Assembly (NCBI GenBank): GCA_963747235.1
Contig: CAVVEU010000008.1
Location: forward strand, 448,001-512,000
Source: an uncultured Candidatus Rokubacteria bacterium
GTDB taxonomy: Bacteria; Methylomirabilota; Methylomirabilia; Rokubacteriales; CSP1-6
Direction: 5' to 3'
DNA: 64,000 nucleotides
Made by a program: the position numbers and the translations under genes. Below the pieces are notes generated by a model, which saw nothing but the letters and a program-made list of their open reading frames with translations, searched no databases and was not told where the DNA came from. Of this stretch, positions 1 to 36,428 are shown piece by piece (the stretch's first letter is position 1; each line of letters begins with the position of its first letter).

Positions 1-450
1 ACCGTGCTGGTGGACACCGTCCAGCTCGTGATGAAGCACCTCAAGGCGGTGGGCATCGACGCGCGGCTGGATCAGAAGGAGTACGGCGCGTATCAGGCGA
101 GCTGCCGGCTCGGGAAGTTCGACTCGATGGTGTTCGGGCCCCTGACCCCGTTCCTCGAGCCCGACAATTTCCTGTTCGGCCAGTACTACACCGGCGAGCC
201 GCGCAACCGGAGCCACGTCAAGGACCCGGCGCTCGACGACCTGCTCGTCCGGCAGCGGCGCGCCATGGACGTGAAGGCCCGCCGCGAGATCATCAACGAC
301 ATCCAGCGGCATCTCGCCAAGCAGCAGTACTACGTCCACGCGCCGACCCGGAGCTACATCGCGGTGTGGGACGGGGCGCTCAAGAACTACGGGCCGAACC
401 TGGGCTACGACTACGGCGGGCGGGTCATCACCGCCTGGCTCGACCGCTGA
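1..450 (+). CDS. ABC transporter substrate-binding protein, family 5 (C-terminal part, truncated by window start)
   Basis: LKAVGIDARL...DPALDDLLVRQRRAMDVKARREIINDIQRHLA...WLDR, typical family 5 SBP C-terminus. Confidence 0.85.
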   Translation, partial: TVLVDTVQLVMKHLKAVGIDARLDQKEYGAYQASCRLGKFDSMVFGPLTPFLEPDNFLFGQYYTGEPRNRSHVKDPALDDLLVRQRRAMDVKARREIINDIQRHLAKQQYYVHAPTRSYIAVWDGALKNYGPNLGYDYGGRVITAWLDR

Positions 451-11985: not shown

Positions 11986-12192
11986 ATGCTCCGGCGTCGG
12001 TCCGCTGCGCTGTGCGTCCTCGTGGCGATGGCGCTGACTTCCTGCGCCACGGGGCCACCGATCCCGCCCGCCTATACCCAGGAAGAGCTGGCCGAGCGGT
12101 GCGTCCGCACCGGGGGATGGTGGCACGGGGTCGCGCCGGATTCCCTGTTCAGCGGGTTCTGCGAGTATTCCTCTCCCGGCATTCTCCGCTGA
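11986..12192 (+). CDS. Small hypothetical lipoprotein
   Basis: Signal peptide plus lipobox LTSC; mature part has CVRTGGWW...FCEY. Confidence 0.6.
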   Translation: MLRRRSAALCVLVAMALTSCATGPPIPPAYTQEELAERCVRTGGWWHGVAPDSLFSGFCEYSSPGILR

Positions 12193-12220
12193 TCCGGCAT
12201 CGGGTATACTCCGCGCACCC

Positions 12221-14242
12221 GTGGCTCTCCGGATCGGCATCGACATCGGCGGCACCTTCACGGACCTGGTCGCGCTGGACGAGGCGACCGGGGCGGTGGT
12301 GGACACGAAGGCCCTGTCGACCCCGCACGACCTGCTCGAGGGCATCCTGCGCTGCGTGGACCAGGCGGGCACGCGCCTGGCCGACTGCCGTCTCGTCATC
12401 CACGGCACCACCATCGGGATCAACGCCCTGCTCGAGCGCAAGGGCGCGCTGACCGGGCTCATCACCACCGAGGGGTTCCGGGACGTGCTCGAGATCGGGC
12501 GCGGCAACTTCCTGCGGATGTACGACGTCCTGTACCGCCGGCCCGCCTCCCTGGTTCCCCGCGGCCGCCGCCTCGAGGTGAGCGAGCGCGTGACCTCGCG
12601 AGGCGAGGTGCTGACGCCGCTGGACGAGGCGGCGGTGCGCGTGGCGGCCCGGCGGCTCGGCGACGAGGGAGTGGAGTCGGTCGCGATCTCGTTCCTGTTC
12701 TCGTTCCGCAACCCGGAGCACGAGCGGCGCGCGGCCGAGCTGGTCGCGGAAGTCCTGCCGCGGGCCTCGGTGTCGGTCTCGCACCGGATCACCCAGGAGT
12801 GGCGCGAGTACGAGCGCACCAGCACCACGGTGGTGAATGCCTACATCCGGCCCATCATGGATCGCTACCTGGGCGCCTTCGAGCGGGGGCTGGCCGGGCG
12901 CGGCTTCGGGGGCCAGCTCCTGATCACCCAGTCGAACGGCGGCGCCTTCTCGGTGGCGGCGGCCGCCTCCAAGCCGGTGCACACGATCGAGTCGGGGCCC
13001 GCGGCGGGGGCCATCGGCTGCGCGAGCCTCGCGCAGGCGCTCGGCGCGGACCGGCTCATCTCCTTCGACATGGGCGGGACCACCGCCAAGTGCGCCATCG
13101 TCGCGGGCGGGCTCGTGCAGACCACCGACGAGTACCACGTGGACGGCCATCCGCTCCGCATCCCGGTCATCGACATCACCGAGGTGAGCGCGGGGGGCGG
13201 CACCATCGCCTGGGTCGACGCGGGCGGCGCGCTCGCCCTGGGCCCGCAGAGCGCGGGCGCCGAGCCGGGCCCGGTCTGCTACGGGCGCGGCGGCCTCGAG
13301 CCCACCGTCACGGACGCGAACCTGGTGCTGGGGCGCATCGCGGCCGGCCGCTTCCTCGGCGGCACCATGCCGCTCGACCACGCGGCGGCGTCGCGGGCCA
13401 TCGAGGAGCGCCTCGGGCTGCCGCTCGGCCTCGCGCGCGACAACGCGGCGGCCGGCGTCGTGCGGCTGGCCGACGTGAAGATGGCGCTGGCGGTGCGCAG
13501 CATCACCACCGAGCGCGGCCTGGACCCGCGGGACTACACGCTGGTGGCCTACGGCGGCGGCGGCCCGCTCCACGCGGTGGCGATCGCGCGCGAGCTCGGG
13601 ATCCCGCGGGTCATCATCCCGCCGGCGCCCTCCACGTTCTCGGCGTGGGGCATGCTCGCCACCGACCTCCGGCACGACCTGGTGCGCACCGTGCTGGAGC
13701 CGCTCGAGCGGACCGACGGCGCGTGGGCCGAGGCGCGGTACCGGGAGATGGAGCGCGAGATCGAGTCCATCCTGCCGCCGGTCGGCGCGGCGACCCGGCA
13801 CCGGGCGGCGGACCTACGCTACCTGGGCCAGGAGCACACGGTGACGGTGGAGGTGGGGAGCCTCGCCGACTGGGCGTCGCTCCGCGGCCGCTTCGACGCG
13901 GCGCACCAGCGCGCCTACGGCTACGCGGCGGCCGACGTGGAGGTGCAGCTCCTGAACCTGCGCCTGGCCGTCGTGTACCCCCTCGAGCGGGCGCCGCTGC
14001 CGACGCTCGAGCGCGGGACGGGGCGGGCGCCCGCCTTCGAGACGCGCAAGATCTACTCCACGCTGCTCCGCGACGTGCTCGAGTACCGCGTGTTCCCGCG
14101 GGAGCGGCTGCGGGCCGGTGACGTCGTGGAGGGTCCGGCCGCGATCGAGGAGGCGGGCACCACCACGATGCTGGAGCCGGGCGACCGCCTCCAGGTCGAG
14201 GACAACGCGTGCCTCGTGATCGACGTGGTGAAGGGAGGCTGA
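12221..14242 (+). CDS. Hydantoinase/5-oxoprolinase A subunit (ATP-dependent lactam hydrolase family)
   Basis: IGIDIGGTFTD, HGTT, EYERTSTT, ESGPAAG, DMGGTT, SAGAEPGPVCYGRGG, PTVTDA. Confidence 0.95.
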   Translation: MALRIGIDIGGTFTDLVALDEATGAVVDTKALSTPHDLLEGILRCVDQAGTRLADCRLVIHGTTIGINALLERKGALTGLITTEGFRDVLEIGRGNFLRMYDVLYRRPASLVPRGRRLEVSERVTSRGEVLTPLDEAAVRVAARRLGDEGVESVAISFLFSFRNPEHERRAAELVAEVLPRASVSVSHRITQEWREYERTSTTVVNAYIRPIMDRYLGAFERGLAGRGFGGQLLITQSNGGAFSVAAAASKPVHTIESGPAAGAIGCASLAQALGADRLISFDMGGTTAKCAIVAGGLVQTTDEYHVDGHPLRIPVIDITEVSAGGGTIAWVDAGGALALGPQSAGAEPGPVCYGRGGLEPTVTDANLVLGRIAAGRFLGGTMPLDHAAASRAIEERLGLPLGLARDNAAAGVVRLADVKMALAVRSITTERGLDPRDYTLVAYGGGGPLHAVAIARELGIPRVIIPPAPSTFSAWGMLATDLRHDLVRTVLEPLERTDGAWAEARYREMEREIESILPPVGAATRHRAADLRYLGQEHTVTVEVGSLADWASLRGRFDAAHQRAYGYAAADVEVQLLNLRLAVVYPLERAPLPTLERGTGRAPAFETRKIYSTLLRDVLEYRVFPRERLRAGDVVEGPAAIEEAGTTTMLEPGDRLQVEDNACLVIDVVKGG

Positions 14243-14245
14243 GCC

Positions 14246-15934
14246 ATGGGAAATGTTCCGCTCGACGCGGTGACGGTCGAGGTGGTCCGCGCCGCGCTCA
14301 ACGCGGCGGCCGAGCGCATGCGGATCACCATGATCAAGACCGCCTACAACCACATCATCAGCGAGAGCCTCGACTTCGGCTGCGCGATCTTCGATCCCGA
14401 CGTGCAGATGATCGCCCAGGGCATCGGGCTGCCAGTGTTCCAGGGCCACCTGGGCTTCCCCATCCAGGCCACCCTCGCCGATCGGGGCCTCGAGGCCTTC
14501 CGCGAGGGCGACGTCTTCATCCACAACGATCCCTACGCGGGCAACGGCAACCACCTGAACGACGTGGCCATGTACGCGCCGGTGTTCTGGGAGGGGGTGC
14601 TCACCGGTTTCGTCTCGGTGAAGGCCCACTGGAGCGACGTGGGCGGCCCGGTGCCGAGCTCCATGCAGGTGGGCTCGCGGGAGTTCCGGCAGGAGGGGCT
14701 TCGCTTCCAGTCGGTGCGCCTCTTCAGCCGCGGGGAGCTGAACGACGAGGTGATGCGGATGATCCGGGGCAACATCCGCACCGAGAGCGGCACGATGAAG
14801 GACATCCAGGCCATGATCGCGGTCTGCCGCGCCGGCCTGGCCTACTTCCACGAGATCCTCGGCAAGTACGGGCGCGACACCGTGCTCGACTCCACCCGGG
14901 TCTACCTCGAGCAGTCCGAGCGTCGCACGCGCGCCGAGCTGGCCCGCATCCCGTCGGGGACGTATCGGGCGGTGGCCCACTTCGACAACGACGGCATCAG
15001 CCTCGACCAGCCGGTGCGCATCGAGATGGCCATCACGGTGGACGCGGGCGCGATGACGGTGGACTTCGAGGGCTCGAGCCCGCAGGTGGTGGGCCCGTTC
15101 AACTGCGGCGACGCGATCACGGTCAGCGCGTGCCGGCTCCTGATCAAGTGCCTGACCACGCCGCTCACCCCGGTGGACGAGGGCTGCTTCCGGCCGCTCA
15201 CCGTGCGCATCCCGGCGCGCTCGGTGCTGGCCTGCGAGGAGCCCGCGCCGACCGCGCGCTACTACGTGCCGATCAACCTGCTGATCGACCTGGGCCTGCG
15301 CGCGCTCTCCGAGGCGCTGCCCGAGGGCATCCCGGCCGGCTCCTACGGGGACCAGATGCCCACGATCGCGTTCGGGACCCATCCCGACACCGGGCGCCTC
15401 TTCATCCAGGGCGATCTCAACGCGGGCGGCACCGGGGCGCGGCCGGCCTATGACGGCGAGTCCGGCATGATCATCTTCGCGGGCTCGACCGCGCGGAACA
15501 ATCCGGTCGAGGTGGTGGAGTCGCGCATCCCGACCATCCGCATCCTCAAGTACGGGCTCCGGCCGGACTCGGGCGGCGCCGGGCGGTATCGGGGCGGCCT
15601 TGGCATCGAGCGGCTCTACGAGTTCCTGGCGCCGGCCTTCATCACCTTCAGCCTCGAGCGCAAGGTCACGCCGCCCTGGGGCCTGCAAGGCGGGAAGGAC
15701 GGCGCGGTGAACGGCGTCGAGATCACCGCGCCCGACGGGGCGGTGCGGCACGTGCGCAAGGCGACCCAGCATCCGATCGCGGCGGGCGAGCGCGTGCGCA
15801 TCATGACCGGCGGCGGCGGCGGCTTCGGCCCGGCCGCCGAGCGGGATGAGGCGGCGGTGCGGCGCGACGTCCGCGAGGGCTACGTGACGCCGGAGGCCGC
15901 GCGGCGCGACTACGGCGCCCGCGGCGGGGCCTAG
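14246..15934 (+). CDS. Hydantoinase B/oxoprolinase family subunit
   Basis: NDPYAGNGNHLND, HWSDVGG, QEG, DSGGAGRYRGG, GGGGGFG. Confidence 0.95.
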   Translation: MGNVPLDAVTVEVVRAALNAAAERMRITMIKTAYNHIISESLDFGCAIFDPDVQMIAQGIGLPVFQGHLGFPIQATLADRGLEAFREGDVFIHNDPYAGNGNHLNDVAMYAPVFWEGVLTGFVSVKAHWSDVGGPVPSSMQVGSREFRQEGLRFQSVRLFSRGELNDEVMRMIRGNIRTESGTMKDIQAMIAVCRAGLAYFHEILGKYGRDTVLDSTRVYLEQSERRTRAELARIPSGTYRAVAHFDNDGISLDQPVRIEMAITVDAGAMTVDFEGSSPQVVGPFNCGDAITVSACRLLIKCLTTPLTPVDEGCFRPLTVRIPARSVLACEEPAPTARYYVPINLLIDLGLRALSEALPEGIPAGSYGDQMPTIAFGTHPDTGRLFIQGDLNAGGTGARPAYDGESGMIIFAGSTARNNPVEVVESRIPTIRILKYGLRPDSGGAGRYRGGLGIERLYEFLAPAFITFSLERKVTPPWGLQGGKDGAVNGVEITAPDGAVRHVRKATQHPIAAGERVRIMTGGGGGFGPAAERDEAAVRRDVREGYVTPEAARRDYGARGGA

Positions 15935-17165: not shown

Positions 17166-18749
17166 TGGCGGATCGGGAGCGGACGGCGGACTGGGATCGG
17201 AGCACGCGGCGGGAGTGGCTGGGTCGGATGGGCGGGCTCGCCGCGGGGGCGGGGCTGGCCTCGATGGGCGGCGCGGGCCTCGCGGCGCGCCCGGCGTGGG
17301 CGCAGGGGCAGCCCAAGCGCGGCGGGCATCCTGAAGGTCGCCACCGTGGACAAGCCGGTGAACATGGACCCGGGCTTCGCCCAGCTCTACTCCTCGCTCC
17401 AGGTCTACCAGAACGTCTACAACAAGCTCGTCTACGTGGACGATGCCGGCCAGTTCGTGCCCGGCCTCGCGAAGTCGTGGAAGCAGGACGGCGAGAAGAC
17501 CTGGGTCTTCGACCTGGTGGACAACGCCACCTTCCACAACGGCGAGCCGTTCACCGCCAAGGACGTGGCCTTCACCTTCAACCGGCTGCTCGACGCCAAG
17601 AACAAGCTGCCGATGCGCGTGTTCTTCTCGCCGGTCGAAGGCGTGGAGGCGGTCGGGGCGCATCAGGTGCGCTTCAGCCTGAGCCGGCCGTTCGGCCCGC
17701 TCTTCGCGATGCTGTCGCAGGCCACCGAGATCGTCAACGAGAAGGCGCTCGCCGAGAAGGATCCGAAGCTGTTCCCGATCGGCACCGGGCCCTATCGCTT
17801 CGTGGAGTGGGTGAAGGACGACCACATCACGCTCGAGCGCTGGGACAAGTACTTCCGGCCCAACCGCCCGTACCTCGACCGCATCATCTTCCATTCGCCG
17901 GCCGACGACACGGTGCGGCTCACCGGGCTCCAGACCGGGCGCTTCAACTGGATCCAGACCGTGCCGCCGCAGCGCATCGCGGAGCTCGAGCGGCTGCCGC
18001 GCGAGATGAAGTCCTCGCCCGGCAAGCCCTACTTCCCGTTCTACCTGATGCTGAACGCGAGCCGCCCGCCGCTCAACGACAAGCGCCTGCGGCAGGCCCT
18101 GGCGTGGACGATCGACCGGTCCGAGATCGTCAAGCTCGTCTACTTCGACACCCACGTGGTCACCGCGGAGCCCACTCCGGCGCCGAGCCCGTGGGCCACC
18201 GGGGTGAACGCCCACAAGGGCGGCCCCGACCTGGCGAAGGCCAGGCAGCTCCTCGCCGAGGCGGGCCACGGCAACGGGCTCACCCTGACCTATCTCGTGA
18301 AGTCGCAGGTGCCGGTGCTGGTCAAGACCGGCGAGATCCTGCGCGAGCAGCTCAAGAAGGTGGGCATCACGCTCGACGTGCGGCCGCTCGAGTCCGGGCA
18401 GTACTTCGAGGAGCTGGTCGGCAAGAAGTTCGACATCGCGGGCGGGTGGTGGAGCGTCACGGTGGACCCGGACATGTTCTACTACCCGATGCAGCACTCG
18501 TCCTCGGCGTGGAACTTCTGCGGGTTCAAGTCGGAGGAGGCGGACAAGCGGCTCGACGCCTTCCGCTTCACCGCGAACGTGGCCGCGCGCAAGAAGATGT
18601 ACCCGGAGCTGGTGCGCTACTTCCAGGAGGAAGGCTCGCTGATCGTCTTCAGCAACGAGCTGCAGCGCTACTGGATGAAGCCCAACGTGCAGGGCTCGGC
18701 GCCGCTGTCCTCGCTCGAGCTGCGCTTCGAGGACACCTGGCTGAGTTGA
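17165..18749 (+). CDS. Peptide/nickel ABC substrate-binding protein with Tat signal (frameshift near 17325)
   Basis: STRREWL; AWAQGQPKRGG; FHNGEPFTAKDV; PIGTGPYRF. Confidence 0.9.
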
Positions 18750-18754
18750 TTGAA

Positions 18755-18785
18755 CTGGGGGGAGCGAGCGCCGCTCCTCCCCCAG
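18755..18785. repeat. Intergenic GC hairpin (REP-like) downstream of the binding-protein gene
   Basis: CTGGGGGGAGCG pairs with CGCTCCTCCCCCAG with a small bulge; no U-tract. Confidence 0.5.
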
Positions 18786-18814
18786 GCCCCCCCACCGCTC
18801 TCGAACAGCGCGAG

Positions 18815-19760
18815 ATGATTCTCGTACGCGGTGCGGCGGCTGGCCTTGGCGGTGCCGCTGCTGCTCGGCATGAGCGTGCTGATCTTCGCGCTCATGCGCC
18901 TGGTGCCGGGCGACCCGGCGGTGGCGGTGCTGGGCTACAAGGCCACGCCCGACGGCATCCGGGCGCTGCGCGAGGCCTTCCACCTCGACGAGCCGGTGCC
19001 GCAGCAGTACCTGCGCTGGCTCGGCGCGGCCGCGCGCGGAGACCTCGGCCACGACTTCCGCCAGAACGAGCCCATCGGCCGGATGATCCTCGACCGGTTG
19101 CCGGTGACGCTCGAGCTGACCCTGCTCGCCGCGCTCTGCACGGTGCTGATCGGGGTGCCGCTCGGCCTTCTGGCCGGCGGCCGGCGCGGCGGGGCCGCGG
19201 ATCGGGCCGCGCTCGCGGTGGGCCTGCTCGGGGTCTCGGTGCCCGACTTCTGGCTCGGGATCATGCTGATCCTGGGCCTCTCGCTGGGCGCCGGGCTGCT
19301 GCCCTCGGGCGGGTGGGTGCCGTTCGCGGAAAGTCCGCTCGAGAACCTGATCCACATGGCGCTCCCGGCCCTGACGCTGGCGGTGAGCCGCGCGGCGGTG
19401 CTCGGCCGGCTGACCCGCGCCGCGGTGCTCGACACCATGCACAAGAGCTTCGTGCAGTACGCGCGCGCCAAGGGCCTCGGCGAGCGCGCCATCCTCTTCC
19501 GGCACGTGCTGCCCAACGCGGCGATCCCGATCGTCACGGTGCTCGGGCTGCAGGTCGGCTACATGCTGGGCGGCGCCATCGTGGTCGAGATGATCTTCAC
19601 GCTGCCCGGCCTCGGGCGCATGACGCTGGACGCGGTGCTCGAGCGCAACTACCCGGTGGTGCAGAGCGCGGTGCTGGTGATCGGCGCGATGTTCATGCTG
19701 GTGAACCTGGTCACCGACGTGCTCTACGGCGCCATCGACCCGCGCGTGCGGCGGCGCTGA
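18815..19760 (+). CDS. Peptide ABC permease, DppB-like (ATG 18815 needs one indel; in-frame GTG 18831)
   Basis: MRLVPGDPA, GDLG, PDFWLG, YARAKGL, RHVLPNA, IFTLPGLG, IDPRVR. Confidence 0.92.
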
Positions 19761-20596
19761 TGCGACCGTCGGGGATGAAGCTGGAGGGAGTGACCGTGGC
19801 CGGGCTCGCGGTGGTGGCCGCGCTCGCGCTGATCGCGGTCCTCGCGCCGCATGTCGTGCCGGGCAGCCCCACCGAGATCGCCAAGGACCACGCGCTGCGC
19901 GGCCCCACCTGGGGCCAGCCCTTCGGCATGGACGACCTCGGGCGGTCCATCCTGAGCCGGGTCGCGCACGCCTACCGCGTCTCGCTCGGCGTCGCGCTGG
20001 CCTCGGTGGCGCTGGCCCTGCTGGTCGGCCTCCCGCTCGGCCTGGTGGCGGGCTACGCGGAGGGCGCGCTCGATCAGCTCATCATGCGGCCGCTCGATGT
20101 GCTGATGGCGTTCCCCGCGATTCTCCTCGCGATCGCCCTCATGAGCGTGTTCGGCACCGGCGTGGTGCTGGTGGCCGCCTCGCTCGCGGTGGTCTACACC
20201 CCGATCGTGGCGCGCGTGGTCCGGGCCGCGGTGCTCGCGGTCAAGGCGGAGGTCTACGTGGACGGCGCGAGGGCGCTGGGCGCGCCGGCGCCCCGGCTGG
20301 TGCTGCGCCACATCCTGCCCAACGCGGCGACGCCGGTGCTGGTGCAGGCCTCGGTGCTGATGGCGATCGCGATCCTGGTCGAGGCCTCGCTGTCGTTCCT
20401 CGGGGTCGGCGTGCGGCCGCCGACGCCCTCGCTCGGGCTCATGCTGGCCGACGGCCGCGGCTTCATGGTGCAGGCGCCCTGGATGGTGATCTTCCCCGGG
20501 CTGGCCATCATGGCCGCGGTGCTCGGCTTCAACATGGTGGCCGACGGACTGCGCGACTGGCTCGACCCGCGTTCTGGCGGTAGCATGGGGGCATGA
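19760..20596 (+). CDS. Peptide ABC permease, DppC-like
   Basis: PFGMDDLGRSILSR, AFPAILLA, RHILPNA, EASLSFLG, DGLRDWLDPR. Confidence 0.92.
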   Translation: MRPSGMKLEGVTVAGLAVVAALALIAVLAPHVVPGSPTEIAKDHALRGPTWGQPFGMDDLGRSILSRVAHAYRVSLGVALASVALALLVGLPLGLVAGYAEGALDQLIMRPLDVLMAFPAILLAIALMSVFGTGVVLVAASLAVVYTPIVARVVRAAVLAVKAEVYVDGARALGAPAPRLVLRHILPNAATPVLVQASVLMAIAILVEASLSFLGVGVRPPTPSLGLMLADGRGFMVQAPWMVIFPGLAIMAAVLGFNMVADGLRDWLDPRSGGSMGA

Positions 20597-21840
20597 AGAC
20601 TCAGCGGTTCGTCATCGTGGGGGCCGCCCTGGCGGGCGCGAGCGCGGCGGCGGCGCTCCGTGAAGGGGGCTTCGACGGCCGGATCACCCTGATCGGCGCC
20701 GAGCCGCTGATGCCGTACAATCGCCCGCCGCTCTCGAAGGGCTATCTCCGCGGCCAGGACCGCTTCGAGGATCAGCTCGTCAATCCGCCCGCGTACTATG
20801 CCGAGCACGACATCACGCTGCGGTCGGGGGTGCGCGCGGACGCCATCGATCCGGGGCGCAAGATCGTCACCCTGGAGCGCGGCGACGAGGTCCCGTACGA
20901 CCGGCTCCTGGTGACCACCGGCGGGCGCAACCGGACGCTGACGACGCCCGGGGCCAACCTGCCCGGCATCTTCCAGCTCCGGACCGTGGAGGACTGCGAT
21001 CGGCTCCGCGCCGTGGCCAAGCCCGGGCGCCGCGCGGTCGTGATCGGCCTGGGGTTCATCGGCTCCGAGGTGACCGCGTCGCTCCGCCAGATGGGCGTCG
21101 AGGTCACGGCGGTCGAGGGCAATCCGGCGCCGCTGGCGCGGGTGCTCGGCCCGGAGGTCGGCGCGGTGCTGGCCGGCATCCATCGCGAGAAGGGCGTGGA
21201 GCTGGTCCTGGAAGACTCGGTCGCGGCCTTCGAGGGCACGGGCTGGGTGGAGCGCGTGCGCACGACGAAGGGGCGGGTGCTGCCGTGCGACTTCGTGGTG
21301 GCCGGCATCGGCATCGTGCCCAACGCGGAGCTGCTCGCCGCCGCGGGGGCGACGGTGGACAACGGCGTGCTCGTGGACGAGCGCTGTCGCACCTCGCTGC
21401 CGGACGTCTACGCGGCGGGCGACGTGGCGAACCATCTCCATCCCGTCTTCGGGCGGCTGCGCGTCGAGCACTGGAACAATGCCTACCGGCAGGGGCGGGC
21501 CGCGGCCCGCGCGATGCTGGACGGGCCCGAGCCCTACGACTACATGCACTCGTTCTGGTCGGATCAGTACGAGCACGTGATCGAGTACATCGGCTTCGCG
21601 GCGTCCTGGGACCGGCTCGTGTTCCGGGGCGATCCGGCCGGCCGGAAGTTCCTCGGCTTCTACGTGAAGGACGGGGTCGTGCGCGCGGCGGTGGGGCTCG
21701 ATCGCGGCGGCGATCCGGAGGATCCCAAGGGCGACAGCGAGCTGGCGGTGGTCGCGGGCCTCATCCGGGATCGCGTCCCGGCCGATCCGGGGCGGCTGGC
21801 CGACGAGGGCGTGGACCTCAAGCGCCTCGCCCGCCCATAG
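20593..21840 (+). CDS. FAD-dependent NAD(P)H:ferredoxin reductase-like oxidoreductase
   Basis: PYNRPPLSKGYL, GLGFIGSE, TSLPDVYAAGDVA, RVEHW, FWSDQY. Confidence 0.92.
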   Translation: MKTQRFVIVGAALAGASAAAALREGGFDGRITLIGAEPLMPYNRPPLSKGYLRGQDRFEDQLVNPPAYYAEHDITLRSGVRADAIDPGRKIVTLERGDEVPYDRLLVTTGGRNRTLTTPGANLPGIFQLRTVEDCDRLRAVAKPGRRAVVIGLGFIGSEVTASLRQMGVEVTAVEGNPAPLARVLGPEVGAVLAGIHREKGVELVLEDSVAAFEGTGWVERVRTTKGRVLPCDFVVAGIGIVPNAELLAAAGATVDNGVLVDERCRTSLPDVYAAGDVANHLHPVFGRLRVEHWNNAYRQGRAAARAMLDGPEPYDYMHSFWSDQYEHVIEYIGFAASWDRLVFRGDPAGRKFLGFYVKDGVVRAAVGLDRGGDPEDPKGDSELAVVAGLIRDRVPADPGRLADEGVDLKRLARP

Positions 21841-21858: not shown

Positions 21859-22810
21859 ATGAGCTTCGACTACGGCAAGTACTTCGGCGAGATCAAGCTG
21901 ACGCACGACCTCCTCTCGAAGAAGGAGGAGCGCACCTGGCTGCTCAAGCCGCCGCGCGACGGCGAGCGCCACGATGTCGTCCTCTACCTGGGCTGCAACG
22001 TGCTGCGGACCTCGCACCTGGTCGAGACGGTGGGCGCGGTCTTCGACCGGCTCGGGCTCGACTACGTGGCCGCGGGCGGGCCGACCTACTGCTGCGGCAT
22101 CCAGCACCACCGCCGCGGGCAGGAGGCGTCGGGCGAGCGCTACGCCAATCACACCGTGGAGCTGCTGCAGAGCATGGCGCCGCGCGAGGTCGTGATGTGG
22201 TGCCCGTCGTGCATCCAGTTCTACGACGAGGTGCTGCAGGCCGAGCTGCCGTTCCCGAAGCGCCACACCGCCGAGTTCCTGGCCGACTGTCTCGACCGCG
22301 GGCTCTTCACGTTCACCCAGCGGGTCGAGGCCACCGTGGCGCTGCACTATCACTACGCGACGGAGGCCCGGGCGCGCGAAGGGCGGGCCGCGCGGCGGCT
22401 GCTGGAGGCGGTGCCCGGTATCACGGTGATCGACTTCGAGCCCGACGCGCGCTGGGGGCGCACGTGCACGCCGGCGCTCCAGGAGCAGCTCGGGCCCGCG
22501 GTCTGGCGGCAGATGGCGCTCGACGACATCGACCGGGCGGTCGGGGCGGGGGCCACGCACCTGGCCGGCATCTACCACGGCTGCCATCGCGATCAGTGCC
22601 GGTTCGAGCGCGAGCGGCCCGATCGTGGTCGAGCACTACCTGACGCTCTTCGCGCGCGCCCTCGGCATCGAGTTCGAGGACACCTACAAGAAGTACATGC
22701 ACATGGGCGACCCCGACCGGATCCTGGAGGACGCGAGCCCCTGCATGGCCGCCAACGGGGTCGATCCCGAGAAGGCGCGCGGGCTCGTCATCAAGACCTT
22801 CTCGGCGTGA
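21859..22810 (+). CDS. CCG-domain (HdrB/GlpC-like) Fe-S binding protein (frameshift near 22620)
   Basis: LYLGCN, YCCG, WCPSC, YHGCHR; continues VEHYLTLFARALGIEFEDTYKKY. Confidence 0.75.
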
Positions 22811-23735
22811 CGCCGGTCGCCCGAGCAGGTCCAGTTCGCCCCGGAGGACGACGTGCCGATCCGGTACATGGATCGGACGCGTGAGTACTACCAGGCGCTC
22901 GGCTTCGCCCCGTACCGCTGGGCCCACTTCACCGACGCGCCGTTCACGCCGCTCGCCATGCCGCTCGCGCGGGCCCGGGTCGCGCTGATCACGACCGCGG
23001 CGCCCGTTCCAGCCGGAGGCCGGCGACCAGGGGCCGCGCGCGCCGTACAACGCGGCCGCGAAGTTCTACCAGGTGTACTCGGCGCCGGTGGACAGCAAGC
23101 CCGATCTCCGCATCTCGCACGTGGGCTACGATCGGGCGAACACGGTGCCCGAGGACCTCAACGCCTACGTTCCGCTGGCCAGGCTGCAGGACGCGGTCGC
23201 GGCGGGACGGATCGGCAGCCTGACCCCGCGCTTCCATGGCGCGCCGACGAATCGCAGCCACCGGGTGACCATGGAGACCGACGCCCCCGAGCTGCTGCGC
23301 CGCTGCCGGGAGGACGGCGCCGACGCGGTCGTCCTCGTCCCGAGCTGACCGGTCTGCCACCAGACCGTGGGTCTGGCCGCCCGGCACCTGGAGGCGAACG
23401 GCATCCCGACCGTGATCATGGGCTGCGCCAAGGACATCGTGGAGCACTGTGGCGTGCCGCGCTTCGTGTGGAGCGACTTCCCGCTCGGCAACTCGGCCGG
23501 GCGGCCCTTCGACGTGGAGTCCCAGGCGCAGACGCTCGAGCTGGCCTTCCGGCTGCTCGAGACCGCGCCGGTGGCCCGGACCACGGTGGCGTCGCCGCTC
23601 CGCTGGGCCGCGGACGCGGCGTGGAAGCATCGCTTCCTCGACGTCGGGAAGCTCTCGCCGGAGGCCATCGCGGAGCGGCGGAAGGAGTTCGACGTGGTGA
23701 AGGCGGTGGCGAAGGCCAAGCGCGAGGGCGCGTGA
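22807..23735 (+). CDS. PrdB/GrdB-family reductase selenoprotein B; in-frame TGA 23346-23348 read as Sec (indels near 22815 and 23003)
   Basis: PFTPL...RVALITTAA, ISHVGYD, DLNAYVPLARL, DGADAVVLVPS-U-PVCHQT, LEANGIPTV, DFPLGNSAGRP; the ORFs either side of the TGA are in the same frame and both match D-proline reductase PrdB. Confidence 0.85.
23360..23376 (+). promoter_or_regulatory. Candidate bacterial SECIS hairpin of the PrdB-like gene
   Basis: CCAGACC-GTG-GGTCTGG perfect stem starting 11 nt after the UGA, with G in the apical loop. Confidence 0.7.
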
Positions 23736-24925
23736 GCAAGCCGTTCGCGGGCGTCCGCATCCTGGACTTCACCCGCTATCTCGCCGGCCCGTACGGGACC
23801 TACCAGCTCGCCCTCCTGGGCGCCGACGTCATCAAGATCGAGTCGCACGAGGGCGACGAGACGCGCCTCTCGCCCGCCGATCCCAAGTGGGCGGAGCGGA
23901 AGATGGCCCCGTCGTTCCTCTCCATGAACGGCAACAAGCGGTCGATCACGCTCGATCTCCGGCGCAAGGAGGCGATCGAGGTCGTCCGGCGCCTGGTCGT
24001 CGGGGCGGACGTGGTGTGGGAGAACTTCCGGGGCGGGGTGATGGACCGGCTCGGGCTCGGCTACGAGGCCCTGTCCGCGATCAATCCCAAGCTCATCTAC
24101 TGCGGCGTCTCCGGCTTCGGCCGGACCGGGCCGGAGAAGGCCACCGCGGCCTTCGACGGCAAGCTGCAGGCGATGTCCGGGATCATGTCCATCACCGGCG
24201 AGCCCGCCTCGGGCCCCACGCGCGCCGGGTTCGCGCTCTGCGACACCATCGGCGGCATCACCGCGGCGCTCGCGGTGGCGAGCGCGCTCTACCAGCGGAC
24301 GCATACCGGGCGCGGCCAGCTCGTGGACGTGGCGATGCTGGACGCGGCGCTGGCCTTCATCGCGGGGCCGGTGTCGGAGTACACGGTGGCGGGCGTCGAG
24401 CAGAAGCAGATCGGCAACGGCTCGGTGAGCCGCAAGCCCACCGCGAGCCGCTTCCGCTGCGGCAACGGATTCATCGTGCTGGCGGTGCTGACCGAGAAGC
24501 AGTTCGTCGGCCTGATGAAGGCGCTCGGTCGGCCCGACGCGCTGGCCGACCCGCGCTTCAAGGACTGGCCGGCGCGCACCGCCAACGAGCCGGCGCTGCG
24601 CGAGATCATCGAGAAGGCGCTGGCCACCGACGATCCGCGCACGTGGGAGGCACGGCTGACCGCGGCCGACGTGCCCTGCGGCTCGATCTGGAAGGTGGAC
24701 GAGATCGTGGGCCACCCGCAGCTCGAGCACCGCGACGTGCTCCAGACCATCGACTCGCGCTACGGCCCGATGCGGCTCGTGGGCGCGGGCTTCCGTCTCG
24801 AGCACGGCAGCCCGGGGATCGACCGGGAGCCGCCGACGCTCGGCGAGCACACCGACGAGATCCTGGCCGAGGCCGGCTACACCGCGGAGGAGATCGAGCG
24901 GCTCCGGCGCGACGCGGTGGTGTGA
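23732..24925 (+). CDS. CoA transferase family III (CaiB/BaiF)
   Basis: GVRILDFTRYLAGPY, LGADVIKIE, NKRSITLDL, ENFR, LGLGYE, PPTLGEHT. Confidence 0.95.
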   Translation: MSKPFAGVRILDFTRYLAGPYGTYQLALLGADVIKIESHEGDETRLSPADPKWAERKMAPSFLSMNGNKRSITLDLRRKEAIEVVRRLVVGADVVWENFRGGVMDRLGLGYEALSAINPKLIYCGVSGFGRTGPEKATAAFDGKLQAMSGIMSITGEPASGPTRAGFALCDTIGGITAALAVASALYQRTHTGRGQLVDVAMLDAALAFIAGPVSEYTVAGVEQKQIGNGSVSRKPTASRFRCGNGFIVLAVLTEKQFVGLMKALGRPDALADPRFKDWPARTANEPALREIIEKALATDDPRTWEARLTAADVPCGSIWKVDEIVGHPQLEHRDVLQTIDSRYGPMRLVGAGFRLEHGSPGIDREPPTLGEHTDEILAEAGYTAEEIERLRRDAVV

Positions 24926-26974: not shown

Positions 26975-28632
26975 ATGACCGAGAAGAGACCGGCGACGGC
27001 GTCACGCGGCATGGTGGTCACCAATCACCCGCTCGGCTCGGCGGCGGGGGCCGAGATGCTCGCCGCGGGCGGCAACGCGGTGGACGCGGCCATCGGCGCG
27101 CTCTTCGCGCTCACGGTGGTGGAGCCGATGATGGTGGGCATCTTCGGCGCGGGCATGACGCACCTGCGGCTGGCCGACGGCCGGCACCTCGTCATCGACA
27201 ACTACACCACCGCGCCCGCCGCCTCGCGGCCCGACATGTTCAAGCCGGTCTCCGACACCTGGCCCGACTACCTGCGCGCGGAGGGCGACGTCAACCTGGT
27301 CGGCCTGCTCTCGGTGGGCGTGCCCGGCACGCTCAAGGCGTGGGCGGAGGCGGTGGCGCGCTTCGGCCGTCTCGACCTCGAGACCGTGATGCAGCCCGCG
27401 ATCCGTCACGCCGAGCGCGGCTTCCGCGCCACGCCGTACCTGGTGGCGGCGGTGACCGAGACCGCGCCGGAGATCGCGCGCTTCCCCGACACCGCGCGCA
27501 CCTTCCTGCCCGGCGGCGCGCCCATCAAGGCGGGCGATCTGATCCAGATGCCGGAGTACGCGGCGACCCTGCGCCTGATCGCGGCGAAGGGGCCCGGCGT
27601 GCTCTACGGCGGCGATCTCGGCGCGACGGTGGCCGACTACATGCGCCGGGACGGCGGCATCATCACCCTGGACGACCTGGCGCGCTACGCCACGATCGAG
27701 CGGCAGCCCATCCGCGGTCGCTACCGCGGCTTCGAGATCACGGGCCCTCCGCCGCCGACCGCGGGCGGGCTCCACCTGGTCGAGATGCTCAACATCCTGG
27801 AGGGCTTCGACCCGCGCGGCCTGGGCTTCGGCACCGCGGACTACTTCCACCTGATGGCCGAGGTGCTCAAGATCGGCTTCGCGGACCGCAACGCGTGCAC
27901 CGGCGATCCGGCCTTCGTGGACATCCCGGTCGAGCGCCTGCTCTCGAAGGAGCACGCGGCCATGCGGCGCGCCCAGATCCGCCCGGATCGGGCGGGGGAG
28001 TACGGCGTGACGGCACGCGTGGCGGCCGGCTCCGCGCACACCACGCACGTCACGACCGCGGACGCCGACGGCAACGTGGTCGCGATGACCCAGACCATCA
28101 ACAACCTGTTCGGGTCGAAGGCCACGGTGCCCGGCACCGGCATGCTGCTCAACAACACCATGGCGCTCTTCGACCCGCACCCCGGGACGCCCGCCTCCAT
28201 CGCGCCCGGCAAGCGGGTGACCAGCAGCATGGCGCCGACGATCGTGCTGCGCGACGGCAAGCCCGCGTGGGCGCTCGGGCTGCCGGGCGGCGTGCGCATC
28301 TTCACCTCCGTGTTCCAGGCGGTGGTCAACCTGATCGACCACCGCATGAGCGCTTCAAGAAGCGGTGGAGGCGCCGCGGATCTGGAGCCAGGGCCAGGAG
28401 CTCGAGATGGAGCAGGATATCCCGGCCGCGGTGCGCGACGCGGTCGCCGCGCGCGGCCACGAGGTGGTGGCCGTCGGCGGGCGTGGCGGGCGGGATGAAC
28501 GCGGTGGCCTTCGCCGCCGACGGCACGCTCGAGGGCGCGGCCTGCTGGCGCGCCGACGGCACGCCCATCGGCGTGAGCGGCGGGCTCGCGCGGCCGGGGA
28601 GCCGCTTCCGGCCGGACGTGAAGCGGCCCTAG
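26975..28632 (+). CDS. ggt: Gamma-glutamyltransferase (frameshifts near 28355 and 28480)
   Basis: GGNAVDAAI, SVGVPG, HTTHVTTAD (Thr nucleophile), LLNN, PGKRVTSSMAP, GLPGG. Confidence 0.9.
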
Positions 28633-35267: not shown

Positions 35268-36428
35268 GTGAACGGCGCCGAGGCGAGCCCGTGGCGCGTG
35301 CTCGCGGCCTCGACGGCGCTGAACGCGCCGATCGGCTCGCTCTACGCGTTCAGCGTGTTCCTGCAGCCGCTGGAGGCGCTGCTCGGGCTGACCCGGGCCG
35401 ACCTGGCGTTCGTCTTCGCCCTGGCCGCCGCCGCGTTCGGCGTCGGCATGATGCTGGCGCCGAGCCTCTACCGCGTCGCTTCGACTCCGCTGCTCGTGAC
35501 GGCCTGCGCGCTCACGAACGCGCTGGGGCTGGCGCTGGCCGCGACCGCGGGCGGGCTGACCCAGCTCGCGATCGGCTACGGGGTGCTCTTCGGGCTCGGC
35601 GGCGGCGCGGCCTACATCCTCGTGCAGCAGATGGTGAACCTGGCGGTGACGCGCCGCCAGGGCCTGGTCAACGGCTACATCGTGAGCCTGCTGCCCGCCG
35701 GCGCGATGATCGCGGCCCCGGTGTTCGGCTGGGCGATCCGCGCCTTCGGCGTGCGCGCCACCCTCGGCGGCTTCGCCGCGGTCCTGGCCATCACCGGGTT
35801 CGCCAGCGCGTGGCTGGTGGCCCATGCCGGTGTGGCCGTCTCGGCGGAGACCGGGAGCGTCACGCTGGACGCGGGCGAACGGCGCCGGGCGGTCTTCTGG
35901 CGGCTTTCGATCGTCTTCTTCCTGGCCGCCTCGGCCGGGCTGATGGTGCTGAGCCAGGCCGCGGGCATCATCGCCGCGTACGGCGGCGCGGCCGCGCTCG
36001 CGGTGTACGGCACCACGTTCATCACCGCCACCATCGCGGCCGCGCGCCTGGGCGGCGGGTGGATGGTGGACTGGCTCGCCATCCCCACCGTCGCGGCCGG
36101 CGCCCACGCGGTCGCGCTCGCCGGCAATGTCGCGCTGACCGTGTGGCCCGGGCCGCTGGTGTCCGTCTTCTCGCTGGCCCTGGTGGGGATGGGCTACGGG
36201 GTGATCTCGGGCGTGACCGCGGCCGCGGTCGCCGTCTACTGGCGGCGGGCGGTCTACGGTCGCGTGGCCAGCCGCGTCTACATCGCGTGGGCCGCGGCGG
36301 CCATCGTCCTGCCCATCATCGCGGGCCGCCTCTTCGACCTCACGCAGGGCTACGGCACCGCGGTGCTGATCGCGGCGGGGGCCAATGCGCTCGGCATTCT
36401 CGTGTCGCTCGGGCTGCCGCGGCGCTGA
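35268..36428 (+). CDS. MFS transporter (oxalate:formate antiporter-like)
   Basis: GSLYAFSVF, GYGVLFGLGGG, multiple hydrophobic helices, FDLTQGY. Confidence 0.85.
   Translation: MNGAEASPWRVLAASTALNAPIGSLYAFSVFLQPLEALLGLTRADLAFVFALAAAAFGVGMMLAPSLYRVASTPLLVTACALTNALGLALAATAGGLTQLAIGYGVLFGLGGGAAYILVQQMVNLAVTRRQGLVNGYIVSLLPAGAMIAAPVFGWAIRAFGVRATLGGFAAVLAITGFASAWLVAHAGVAVSAETGSVTLDAGERRRAVFWRLSIVFFLAASAGLMVLSQAAGIIAAYGGAAALAVYGTTFITATIAAARLGGGWMVDWLAIPTVAAGAHAVALAGNVALTVWPGPLVSVFSLALVGMGYGVISGVTAAAVAVYWRRAVYGRVASRVYIAWAAAAIVLPIIAGRLFDLTQGYGTAVLIAAGANALGILVSLGLPRR

Follow-up and report, generated by a model that had tools for sequence, protein, structure and literature searches.

A predicted selenoprotein remotely related to PrdB and GrdB, and paired with a family III CoA-transferase, in a Candidatus Rokubacteria genome

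GrdB, GrdF and GrdH are proteins of about 430 residues which work together with GrdA and GrdE. The SECIS element of the Escherichia coli fdhF type is a hairpin within the coding sequence, shortly after the UGA, with a small apical loop whose first base is a G some 20 nt from that codon. Selenoproteome papers print a UxxC motif (where U is selenocysteine, Sec) for both PrdB and GrdB, and the GrdB motif is given as UxxCxxC in a review. Metagenomes have yielded reports of UxxC 'PrdB' selenoproteins since 2005, and the PrdB-like UxxC sequences placed under pfam07355 number 42 in the Sargasso Sea and 235 in the Global Ocean Survey (GOS) (PMC1088965, PMC2398784). Compared by their published descriptions, these sequences share with the family treated here an in-frame TGA within UxxC and the existence of Cys homologues. 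However, they are named as proline reductase, and the passages that describe them mention neither a CoA-transferase partner nor a missing PrdA (PMC1088965, PMC2398784). The phylum is described in a review as rich in selenoproteins, and the present family adds to such reports. The family itself is not new: this kind of selenoprotein is known, and standard annotation cuts the gene in two. Literature searches for a link between PrdB-like proteins and a CoA-transferase returned nothing relevant.

Here we describe a locus on a 64,000 nt stretch of DNA (hereafter the window; contig CAVVEU010000008.1, positions 448,001 to 512,000) from an uncultured Candidatus Rokubacteria bacterium. Judged from sequence comparison, positions 22807-23735 very probably encode a selenoprotein of ~306 aa, a remote member of the GrdB/PrdB superfamily whose UGA would be decoded via SelB and tRNA-Sec. 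The features of the locus are as follows.

20593..21840, + strand: FAD/NAD(P)H pyridine nucleotide-disulphide oxidoreductase of the ferredoxin-reductase type (Pyr_redox_2, 224 bits; Reductase_C)
21859..22810, + strand: CCG-domain (HdrB/GlpC-like cysteine-rich) protein, frame-broken at 22618-22620 (Pfam CCG, 32 bits; weak NF045663 match)
22807..23735, + strand: gene of the probable PrdB/GrdB-like selenoprotein, from a GTG start to a TGA stop at 23733-23735 (three-frame translations, GC3 frame plot)
22820..22822, + strand: CCC run with a second, inferred extra C, which would join GTG 22807 to the QFAPEDD frame
23003..23005, + strand: CCC run with one extra C, changing the frame from start mod 3 = 2 to mod 3 = 0 (alignment with relatives)
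23346..23348, + strand: Sec codon UGA, which opens the U-P-V-C motif (TGA conserved at this codon)
23351..23366, + strand: hairpin proposed by the initial annotation, GGUCUG-CCAC-CAGACC (-10.6 kcal/mol)
23355..23357, + strand: TGC, the cysteine of U-P-V-C and presumed resolving thiol (Se-S bond with Sec)
23360..23376, + strand: likely SECIS apical hairpin (covariation; Sec against Cys forms)
23732..24925, + strand: family III (CaiB/BaiF-type) CoA-transferase (Pfam CoA_transf_3, E 5.9e-114)

The initial annotation of the window had noted two ORFs, 23073-23348 and 23367-23735, lying in the same frame with a TGA between them. The sequence and its translations agree with this: both are in frame with start mod 3 = 0, and the TGA at 23346-23348 is followed by CCG GTC TGC CAC CAG ACC. 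Reading the TGA as U gives ...GADAVVLVPS-U-PVCHQTVGLAARHLE..., with the core VVLVPS-U-PVCHQT. In the GC3 frame plot, third-position GC stays at 0.90-1.00 across the TGA in this frame, and therefore coding continues through it. The cysteine of the motif (C181) occupies an invariant column in alignment A4, and its role as resolving thiol is suggested by the UxxC motif of PrdB and GrdB. The start that had been proposed at 22807 was only partly borne out. There is a GTG at this position and it overlaps the upstream stop (GTGA), but it lies in a different frame from the N-terminal homology (EQVQFAPEDDVPIRYMDRT...ITTAAP), which is in frame with start mod 3 = 2. An intact orthologue (L035:1306-2223) has 306 codons, and the product of the gene is placed at ~306-310 aa. 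TGA is the usual stop in the window, ending 23 of 37 high-GC3 ORFs. Three further same-frame TGA junctions, at 448-450, 14240-14242 and 36426-36428, were rejected as Sec sites, being ordinary borders of unrelated genes.

The TGA was then followed through relatives of the gene. Searching 251 genomes of the class gave 128 matches, of which 126 have TGA at the site and two do not cover it; those with TGA extend to paralogues of about 50% and 40% identity. Read codon by codon in DNA, it was found at 125 loci, 51 from genomes and 74 from metagenomes. The gene is present in 18/20 genomes of the genus, and the gene or a paralogue in 112/251 genomes of the class. Cys homologues, which the initial annotation had expected at the TGA, were seen as DNA at 86 loci with TGC or TGT, mostly in alphaproteobacterial genomes. 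All 80 genome loci labelled Acetobacteraceae, Rhodopila, Bradyrhizobium and others carry Cys, whilst the 80 metagenome loci divide into 74 with TGA and 6 with a Cys codon. Moreover, the Sec machinery that had been named as a check is complete in the window's genome, with selA (578 bits), selB (365 bits), selD (228 bits) and a tRNA-Sec (69 bits, anticodon TCA); all of these but selD are grouped on contig C14. Conservation far beyond chance, in orthologues and paralogues alike, strongly supports from comparative sequence that TGA 23346-23348 is a genuine Sec codon, and with it the proposal that a PrdB/GrdB-type selenoprotein lies hidden here, its Sec heading the U-P-V-C motif.

Six database proteins (P0002-P0007) of 308-309 aa, 87-90% identical, have C printed at the site. 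Since the database print shows U as C, they were left out of the Cys-form counts. Their DNA was searched for among the metagenome loci and was not found there; the closest loci, 84-86% identical, all carry TGA. A hint that they may be true Cys forms is the V-A-L or I-A-L that they contain, against V-G/S-L in Sec forms. In public sequencing runs the best share of words was at most 0.46, corresponding to relatives only, and that in RNA runs was 0.14-0.21.

A hairpin shortly downstream of the TGA separates Sec from Cys forms. Its arms are CCAGACC (23360-23366) and GGUCUGG (23370-23376), and its loop, GUG (23367-23369), opens with a G at a distance of 21 nt downstream from the U in UGA. Over 49 Sec sites, 92.2% of cells are paired, 4/7 pairs have changed on both sides and there are 13 compensatory cells; the observed values were reached in 0/500 shuffles. 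The compensatory changes include A-U to U-A and C-G to G-C, and in a paralogue from the same genome (L046) the stem is wholly different with pairing kept. Two stem pairs are invariant and many of the scored sequences are close kin. Six or seven of the 7 pairs form in 123/123 Sec sites, and the complete hairpin (7/7) occurs in 0/86 Cys forms, most of which make 5/7 pairs, with AGC or GCG replacing the AGT or GGT of Sec forms. In the 3' arm the Ser codon is AGT in 72/72 Sec forms against AGC in 19/23 Cys forms, a pattern of synonymous-site constraint on the Sec forms. Part of the hairpin reflects coding constraint, because conserved residues fix the letters in such a way that 4-5 of its 7 pairs are present even in Cys forms. 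We conclude that 23360-23376 is likely the SECIS, the putative signal bound by SelB. It resembles the E. coli fdhF-type element in being an in-gene hairpin soon after the UGA with G first in a small apical loop. In contrast to that element, it is much shorter, with a stem of 6-7 bp, has a loop of 3 nt (5 nt if the closing pair is lost), and shows no evident bulged U.

The hairpin following the TGA in the initial annotation is a different one, pairing GGTCTG (23351-23356) with CAGACC (23361-23366). It exists as predicted, at -10.6 kcal/mol, but it does not behave as a SECIS, which falls instead to the overlapping 23360-23376. As the CAGACC arm is common to both hairpins, the two are mutually exclusive. 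When scored as the SECIS, the earlier hairpin had 79.7% of cells paired and no compensatory change, with 500/500 shuffles equal, and it was complete in 50/80 Cys forms against 23/49 Sec forms. By this comparison the codons for P-V-C-H-Q-T account for it. The SECIS hairpin folded alone gives -11.1 kcal/mol. Within a 35-nt context folding prefers the earlier hairpin over it, and the fold of the 60 nt after the TGA has z = -0.06 with a minimum-energy structure that omits the SECIS hairpin; single-sequence thermodynamics therefore cannot decide between the two. An Rfam search gave four matches at chance level, none of them a SECIS.

The reading frame of the window's copy is broken by additional bases. 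At 23003-23005 the window has GCGCCCGTTCC, where each of the 11 relatives from the genus that the alignment displays has GCG-CCGTTCC. The further C at 22820-22822 is not proven by alignment, because the length of the N-terminal stretch varies among relatives. In the preceding CCG-domain gene, the extra C at 22618-22620 is absent in 16/16 relatives. The insertions at 23003-23005 and 22618-22620 are shared by none of the relatives examined. The selD-like genes of this genome, a draft that is 88% complete in 42 contigs, are also split between frames. The frameshifts are one-base C insertions private to the assembly and most likely represent sequencing errors.

Such errors raise the question of whether the TGA itself is one, or whether a Cys codon recently mutated from TGC to this stop. 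The insertions here and in the preceding gene, together with the occurrence of Cys forms elsewhere, would fit; yet the TGA is shared by 126/128 class matches and 74/80 metagenome loci, it always occurs together with the hairpin specific to Sec forms and the rare codons AGT or GGT, and the errors seen in the assembly are C insertions, not substitutions. We consider an erroneous TGA exceedingly improbable. Hardly less improbable is that the TGA is a true stop, leaving an N-terminal polypeptide of ~177 aa and a separate C-terminal product (122-128 aa) that begins at GTG 23367. Database entries of 122-123 aa do begin directly after the site, one of them named 'glycine reductase, partial' and originating from a Candidatus Rokuibacteriota MAG. 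However, the Cys homologues are single chains of ~310 aa, a split would cut through the redox motif, and the genome has the Sec machinery. Moreover, GTG 23367 is the loop of the conserved hairpin, and it is no conserved start because the codon is GTC, GCC or GTT at some loci. It is also conceivable that the family encodes a selenoprotein but that the window's copy is a dead gene, with the C insertions as real mutations. The gene carries one insertion relative to the relatives shown and one inferred, its CCG-domain neighbour carries another, and no insertion is shared with any relative examined. Against this, all three insertions fall in one context, G-CCC-G, and GC3 is at least 0.9 on either side of each, so that there is no decay of the gene. 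Frame splits also affect this genome's selD genes, something that a Sec-using organism could not afford, and the assembly is an incomplete draft. A dead copy is thus unlikely, and we retain the reading of an intact selenoprotein gene with sequencing errors.

We next consider how close the protein stands to PrdB and GrdB proper. The best-scoring curated NCBIfam family is PrdB (TIGR04483): where its cut-off is 300 bits, the fragment encoded in the window reaches 89.3 and the intact orthologue 92.1. With Pfam PF07355 (cut-off 22) this Sec-form orthologue scores 16.3, and with TIGR01918 (cut-off 65.45) 28.9; two Cys forms exceed the Pfam cut-off (27.1, 28.2) and remain below that of TIGR01918 (41.5-41.7). 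Despite these sub-cut-off scores, E-values of 1e-7 to 1e-26 establish homology to the GrdB/PrdB superfamily. Homology to the PrdB and GrdB models spans both sides of the Sec, and the Pfam GRDB match stops 3 residues before the U. The protein resembles PrdB of Clostridia in its U-x-x-C motif, as this is printed in papers, and in its homology on both sides of the Sec. It is also of the same size class (238 positions in the PrdB model, ~306 residues here). It differs from PrdB in an N-terminal extra stretch of ~40 residues and a C-terminal helix, in its pairing with a CoA-transferase, and in its hosts, which are soil Rokubacteria-type and alphaproteobacterial genomes rather than amino-acid-fermenting anaerobes. 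With GrdB, GrdF and GrdH (PF07355, TIGR01917/01918) it shares the superfamily (E 1e-7 to 1e-11) and Sec as first residue of UxxC. Unlike them, it is shorter (~306 against ~430 residues), its site, U-P-V-C-H-Q-T, is without the third Cys of UxxCxxC, and no GrdA match was found in the 88% complete genome. The Cys homologues of Bradyrhizobium, Rhodopila, Acidisphaera and other Acetobacteraceae are 55-68% identical over the matched stretches, and are alike in length, in the C/U-P-V-C-H-Q-T motif and in the downstream CoA-transferase. They differ in having TGC or TGT in place of TGA, and an incomplete SECIS hairpin.

Is the protein then a genuine D-proline reductase (PrdB), or a B subunit of glycine, sarcosine or betaine reductase? 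PrdB is its top NCBIfam hit, UxxC is present, and relatives appear in some sources under the name 'D-proline reductase (dithiol) PrdB'. However, a score of 92 bits against 300, the TIGR01918 shortfall and the lack of the third Cys all speak against it, as does a constant partner, the CoA-transferase, which is foreign to both systems. PF09338 (PrdA/GrdE) had no match in the window's 88% complete genome, nor in any of 14 control genomes, and PF04723 (GrdA) likewise had none there or in its positive controls. As no pyruvoyl partner (PrdA/GrdE) or GrdA was found in this incomplete genome, we regard the protein as most probably neither a D-proline nor a glycine reductase, and consider the contrary very unlikely. 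The earlier label of a PrdB/GrdB-like protein with U-x-x-C holds as regards the motif and the two-sided homology, but not as PrdB or GrdB proper, the scores lying under the curated cut-offs.

Structure prediction added little. The U-P-V-C redox pair is flanked by a beta-strand on one side and the beginning of a helix on the other. The intact orthologue was modelled with AlphaFold (pLDDT 78.2, pTM 0.83). A Foldseek search of this model against the PDB gave no match at E <= 0.001, and solved structures searched by sequence yielded nothing relevant up to E 1. VIA-align returned generic three-layer alpha/beta folds alone (best Z 10.3, LacI and periplasmic-binding-type domains), and hence structure offers no functional lead.

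The GTG start of the CoA-transferase overlaps the selenoprotein stop (GTGA), and this gene lies directly downstream in 19/19 Sec-form orthologue loci and 76/80 Cys-form loci. It is the sole conserved neighbour, the remaining neighbourhood being lineage-specific. The CCG-domain gene was found in 16/16 same-genus loci and in 0/3 loci outside the genus, and the flavoprotein (20593..21840) was matched in 12/16 same-genus loci, several loci ending inside or before the gene. This pair is confined to the genus. There, the Se-S bond may be reduced by the CCG-domain protein, with the flavoprotein as a candidate electron input. Paralogues of the selenoprotein also adjoin redox partners, namely a Sec-glutaredoxin or a disulphide oxidoreductase.

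What such a protein might do can be proposed from gene order and the chemistry of the family. By analogy with PrdB and GrdB, the selenolate would attack a carbon of the substrate and displace a leaving group. The neighbouring Cys would then turn the selenoether into a Se-S bond, releasing the reduced product, and a disulphide-reductase system would re-reduce the Se-S bond. In the genus, this last step may be carried out by the co-transcribed flavoprotein and CCG-domain protein. The adjacent family III CoA-transferase would handle the substrate or product, probably a carboxylic acid, in the form of its CoA thioester. As a class of chemistry, reductive cleavage by a selenolate and a resolving Cys has, in our estimation, an even chance of being correct. 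More tentatively, and with less confidence, the PrdB-like seleno-/thiol-protein and the CoA-transferase might together form a two-gene reductive module without a pyruvoyl subunit, in which U/C-x-x-C cleaves a carbon-heteroatom bond. The substrate carbon would in that case be activated as a CoA thioester, or bear a good leaving group.

These data place a full selenoprotein behind a gene that public annotation gives merely as a 122-123 aa 'glycine reductase, partial'. They set its subfamily apart from the true proline and glycine reductases, with the CoA-transferase as a testable partner. Moreover, Sec and Cys forms of the same mRNA stretch provide a clean comparison of the bases that make a SECIS. 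As the conserved H-Q-T..L codons of Cys forms supply 4-5/7 of its pairs, a switch from Cys to Sec would need just two or three base changes. If the two-gene module is real, soil bacteria would have in it a counterpart to the Stickland reductases, one common to Rokubacteria-type genomes in its Sec form and to Alphaproteobacteria in its Cys form.

The initial annotation proposed a hidden selenoprotein at 22807-23735 (+), and the in-frame TGA at 23346-23348 on which it turned was confirmed in the DNA. ORFs 23073-23348 and 23367-23735 have a single frame in common, the TGA is followed by CCG GTC TGC CAC CAG ACC, and with U entered for the TGA the translation runs ...EDGADAVVLVPS-U-PVCHQTVGLAARHLEANGIP.... 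The G+C content of the window is 72%, and since GC3 in this frame stays at 0.90-1.00 on both sides of the TGA (~22980 to 23700), coding runs past it. A reassigned genetic code is ruled out because TGA is the usual stop in the window, ending 23 of 37 high-GC3 ORFs (the Sec codon counted as one of the 23). Three more TGAs lie between long ORFs of one frame; as selenoproteins they were rejected, being plain junctions of unrelated genes.

Other TGA junctions in the window
448-450: solute-binding protein / SDR
14240-14242: hydantoinase A / hydantoinase B
36426-36428: MFS transporter / TIM-barrel protein

The TGA is conserved well beyond this genome. Forty relatives yielded 25 matches beyond the window's own, each with one internal TGA (in the genus, 18 of its 20 genomes; in the family, one further genus; in another family, 5 of the 8 genomes of a single genus). 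Class-wide, a 241-residue query with the Sec site at residue 113 matched in 112 of 251 genomes, giving 128 rows, three of them from genomes marked as unpublished (G233, G116), on which no claim rests. TGA is present in 126 of these rows (three also with TAG, two with two TGAs), and the two without a stop span query residues 139-240 and 1-79 and so miss the site. Moreover, the codon was seen as TGA in the DNA of 20 orthologue loci, a distant paralogue in the window's own genome (L046), 17/17 loci of a paralogue group at ~50% identity, 13/13 loci of two groups at ~40% identity and 74/80 metagenome loci; in every locus checked it is the U of U-x-x-C. We are highly confident that TGA 23346-23348 is a real Sec codon. 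The genome also encodes the selenocysteine machinery that the initial annotation had asked for, in full.

Selenocysteine machinery of the window's genome
selA: contig C14, 578 bits
selB: contig C14, 365 bits
tRNA-Sec: contig C14, 69 bits; anticodon TCA by ARAGORN
selD: contig C27, 228 bits

Cys homologues with C at the TGA position, likewise anticipated, were found at 80 genome loci (TGC in 69, TGT in 11) and at 6 of the 80 metagenome loci (TGC/TGT). Titles of the Cys-form records include Acetobacteraceae, Rhodopila, Acidisphaera, Siccirubricoccus, Bradyrhizobium and others. Proteins in the databases at 83-90% identity appear with C and were left out of this count, since the source renders U as C. 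Proteins P0002-P0007 (308-309 aa, 87-90% identical) have C printed at the site by this same source and, in place of the V-G/S-L of all Sec forms, show V-A-L or I-A-L; the DNA behind them was looked for, metagenome loci included, and not found. Should these prove to be genuine Cys forms, both versions, Sec and Cys, would exist side by side at ~90% identity.

A hairpin had also been noted just after the TGA. It exists, but it overlaps another, and the two are mutually exclusive because the arm CAGACC is common to both.

Hairpins downstream of the TGA
First, 23351-23366: GGUCUG-CCAC-CAGACC, -10.6 kcal/mol
Second, 23360-23376: CCAGACC-GUG-GGUCUGG, -11.1 kcal/mol

Folding of this single copy does not choose between them; comparison among homologues does. 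Across 49 Sec sites (46 distinct), 92.2% of cells in the second hairpin are paired and both sides have changed in 4 of its 7 pairs (13 cells); 0 of 500 shuffles match any of five measures, and shifting the partner by 1-3 columns leaves only 16-49% pairing. The changes are compensatory: nine sequences of a small-genome group have exchanged A-U for U-A (CAGUCC...GGACUG), one paralogue, L139, has exchanged C-G for G-C (CAGAGC...GCUCUG), and L046 holds another stem sequence in the same register (GCACACC-GGA-GGUGUGC). The first loop base is an invariant G. The first hairpin has 79.7% of cells paired and no compensatory changes, and is equalled by 500/500 shuffles. Because it lacks covariation and is complete more often in Cys forms (50/80) than in Sec forms (23/49), it is a side effect of the codons for P-V-C-H-Q-T.

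Of its 7 pairs, the second hairpin makes 6-7 in 49/49 and 74/74 Sec sites, whereas among 86 Cys forms 7 pairs occur in none, 6 in five and mostly 4-5. This comparison is limited by the close kinship of many of the sequences, by two invariant pairs and by the share of the stem that conserved residues already give to Cys forms. The difference comes down to one codon, which in Sec forms is GGT (41), AGT (72), GGA (9, with a compensating U) or GCT (1). Serine at this codon is AGT in 72/72 Sec forms, as against AGC 19, TCC 2, TCG 1 and AGT 1 among the Cys forms; where genomic GC3 is near 0.95, codons ending in T are rare. Covariation and the contrast between Sec and Cys forms thus support 23360-23376, in place of the first hairpin, as the putative SECIS. 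With the UGA in the A site, the ribosome would open the first hairpin and free CAGACC for the second, which, starting 12 nt past the UGA, would offer its G-first loop to SelB.

The reading frame is broken in this assembly. The N-terminal homology (EQVQFAPEDDVPIRYMDRTREYYQALGF...LITTAAP) lies in a different frame from the TGA-spanning part, the switch being one extra C in the run 23003-23005, where the window has GCGCCCGTTCC against GCG-CCGTTCC in 11/11 same-genus relatives shown. Relatives start at an ATG overlapping the upstream stop as ATGA; the window counterpart, GTGA at 22807-22810, lies in the third frame; bringing it into phase takes another extra C, which we would place at 22820-22822. 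The upstream gene has an extra C at 22618-22620, without counterpart in 16/16 relatives. These three sites, in two adjacent genes, have the context G-CCC-G in common (two shown against relatives, one that we infer), a pattern that points less to decay than to a sequencing or polishing method that errs systematically at homopolymers or at a motif. The selD-like genes at G000:C8:303114-303868 and G000:C27:46033-46945 (loci L010-L012, L015, L016) match the selD model in 2-3 consecutive pieces in different frames, again pointing to frameshift errors across the assembly. Given that the C insertions are absent in relatives, that selD-like genes are also split and that the genome is a draft (88% complete, 42 contigs), the frame breaks in and beside the selenoprotein gene are read as assembly errors.

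The intact orthologue L035:1306-2223 (306 codons, ATG start, U at residue 178) was used for family scoring and structure modelling.

Scores of the L035 orthologue against family models (bits; cut-off)
PrdB TIGR04483: 92.1; 300
GrdF: 34.0; 800
GrdH: 32.4; 775
GrdB TIGR01917: 29.7; 602.2
TIGR01918: 28.9; 65.45
Pfam GRDB: 16.3; 22 (match stops three residues short of U)

The label PrdB/GrdB-like holds for the homology and for Sec in U-P-V-C, but with all scores under the curated cut-offs the protein is not PrdB proper; by these scores it belongs to the PrdB/GrdB superfamily, outside every curated family. For this reason public entries hold only pieces, namely, in GenBank, a 123-aa entry of a Candidatus Rokuibacteriota MAG named 'glycine reductase, partial' and, in ENA, 122-aa pieces beginning just past the site. 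PrdA/GrdE (PF09338) and GrdA (PF04723) had no match in the 88% complete genome, and the control genomes gave none either. No solved structures related by sequence were found; the predicted structure (pLDDT 78.2) has an alpha/beta fold of Rossmann-like type in which U178 comes after strand 171-175 and before helix 181-194, and fold searches with it gave generic matches only.

Passages of the Sargasso Sea and GOS papers report 42 (PMC1088965) and 235 (PMC2398784) UxxC 'proline reductase PrdB' selenoprotein sequences, in both cases with Cys homologues too and called abundant; going by these passages, they are of the same kind as the window's gene. A 2022 review has an entry listing UxxC for PrdB and GrdB (PMC9312934), and one from 2026 has a passage on 63 selenoprotein genes predicted in one Methylomirabilota MAG (PMC13188914). 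The kind is already known, and the initial annotation rightly spotted an unannotated member; its hidden-selenoprotein reading is supported with three corrections, concerning which hairpin is the likely SECIS, the distinction from PrdB proper and the frameshifts private to the assembly. In the literature searched, neither a CoA-transferase pairing of a PrdB-like protein nor a short SECIS with a Cys-form precursor was found in print.

Within one GTGA (23732-23735) the selenoprotein gene ends and the gene of a family III CoA-transferase begins, its start codon being GTG. The CoA-transferase matches Pfam at E 5.9e-114, and its best NCBIfam match is succinate--glutarate CoA-transferase (274 bits vs a cut-off of 750). 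This gene lies directly downstream in 19/19 Sec-form orthologue loci and 76/80 Cys-form loci. When neighbours of the 80 Cys loci were clustered, only the CoA-transferase and the PrdB-like reductase itself reached 69-70 loci; the next clusters hold at most 33 and reflect lineage-specific synteny, the largest being probably Bradyrhizobium synteny, judging from loci L078-L117. In this genus only, a flavoprotein gene and a CCG-domain protein gene lie upstream, the second translationally coupled to the selenoprotein gene.

Genes around the selenoprotein gene
12038-15934: oxoprolinase-type hydantoinase A + B
17166-20596: family-5 solute-binding protein with permeases
20593-21840: flavoprotein, ferredoxin-reductase type
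21859-22810: CCG-domain protein
26975-28498: gamma-glutamyltranspeptidase

The flanks lend the operon a gamma-glutamyl/oxoproline flavour, and an alpha/beta hydrolase and an NMO-type flavoenzyme lie farther out. The flanking genes, like these farther ones, lack conservation in other lineages, and the flanks may therefore carry no information on the substrate.

Paralogues have their own surroundings. In L136-L143, of the ~50%-identity group, a glutaredoxin-like gene lies ~40-50 nt downstream of the paralogue (e.g. L143:3217). It too has a TGA in frame, in U-G-P-C or U-R-P-C, with a Pfam Glutaredoxin match after the TGA and a hairpin CCUGCG-GUC-CGCAGG ~30 nt past it; the gene likely encodes another selenoprotein, a candidate for reducing the adjoining PrdB-like paralogue. 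One ~40%-identity group has a disulphide oxidoreductase with a dimerisation domain nearby. L046 (G000:C29:143412-143933), the second PrdB-like gene of the window's genome at 34% identity, likewise carries a TGA in frame, in U-P-F-C; it is preceded by a zinc-type dehydrogenase and a fragment of a CoA-transferase.

Lastly, the U-x-x-C pair may act as in PrdB and GrdB, in which case the selenolate would attack a substrate carbon, the Cys would resolve the selenoether to give an Se-S bond, and a reductase system would restore the selenol. By analogy, we put this class of chemistry at about even odds, and any named substrate at far less. The missing pyruvoyl subunit, with no match in the 88% complete genome, suggests a substrate that would not need a Schiff base, and the constant CoA-transferase neighbour suggests that an acid substrate or product may be handled as its CoA thioester.
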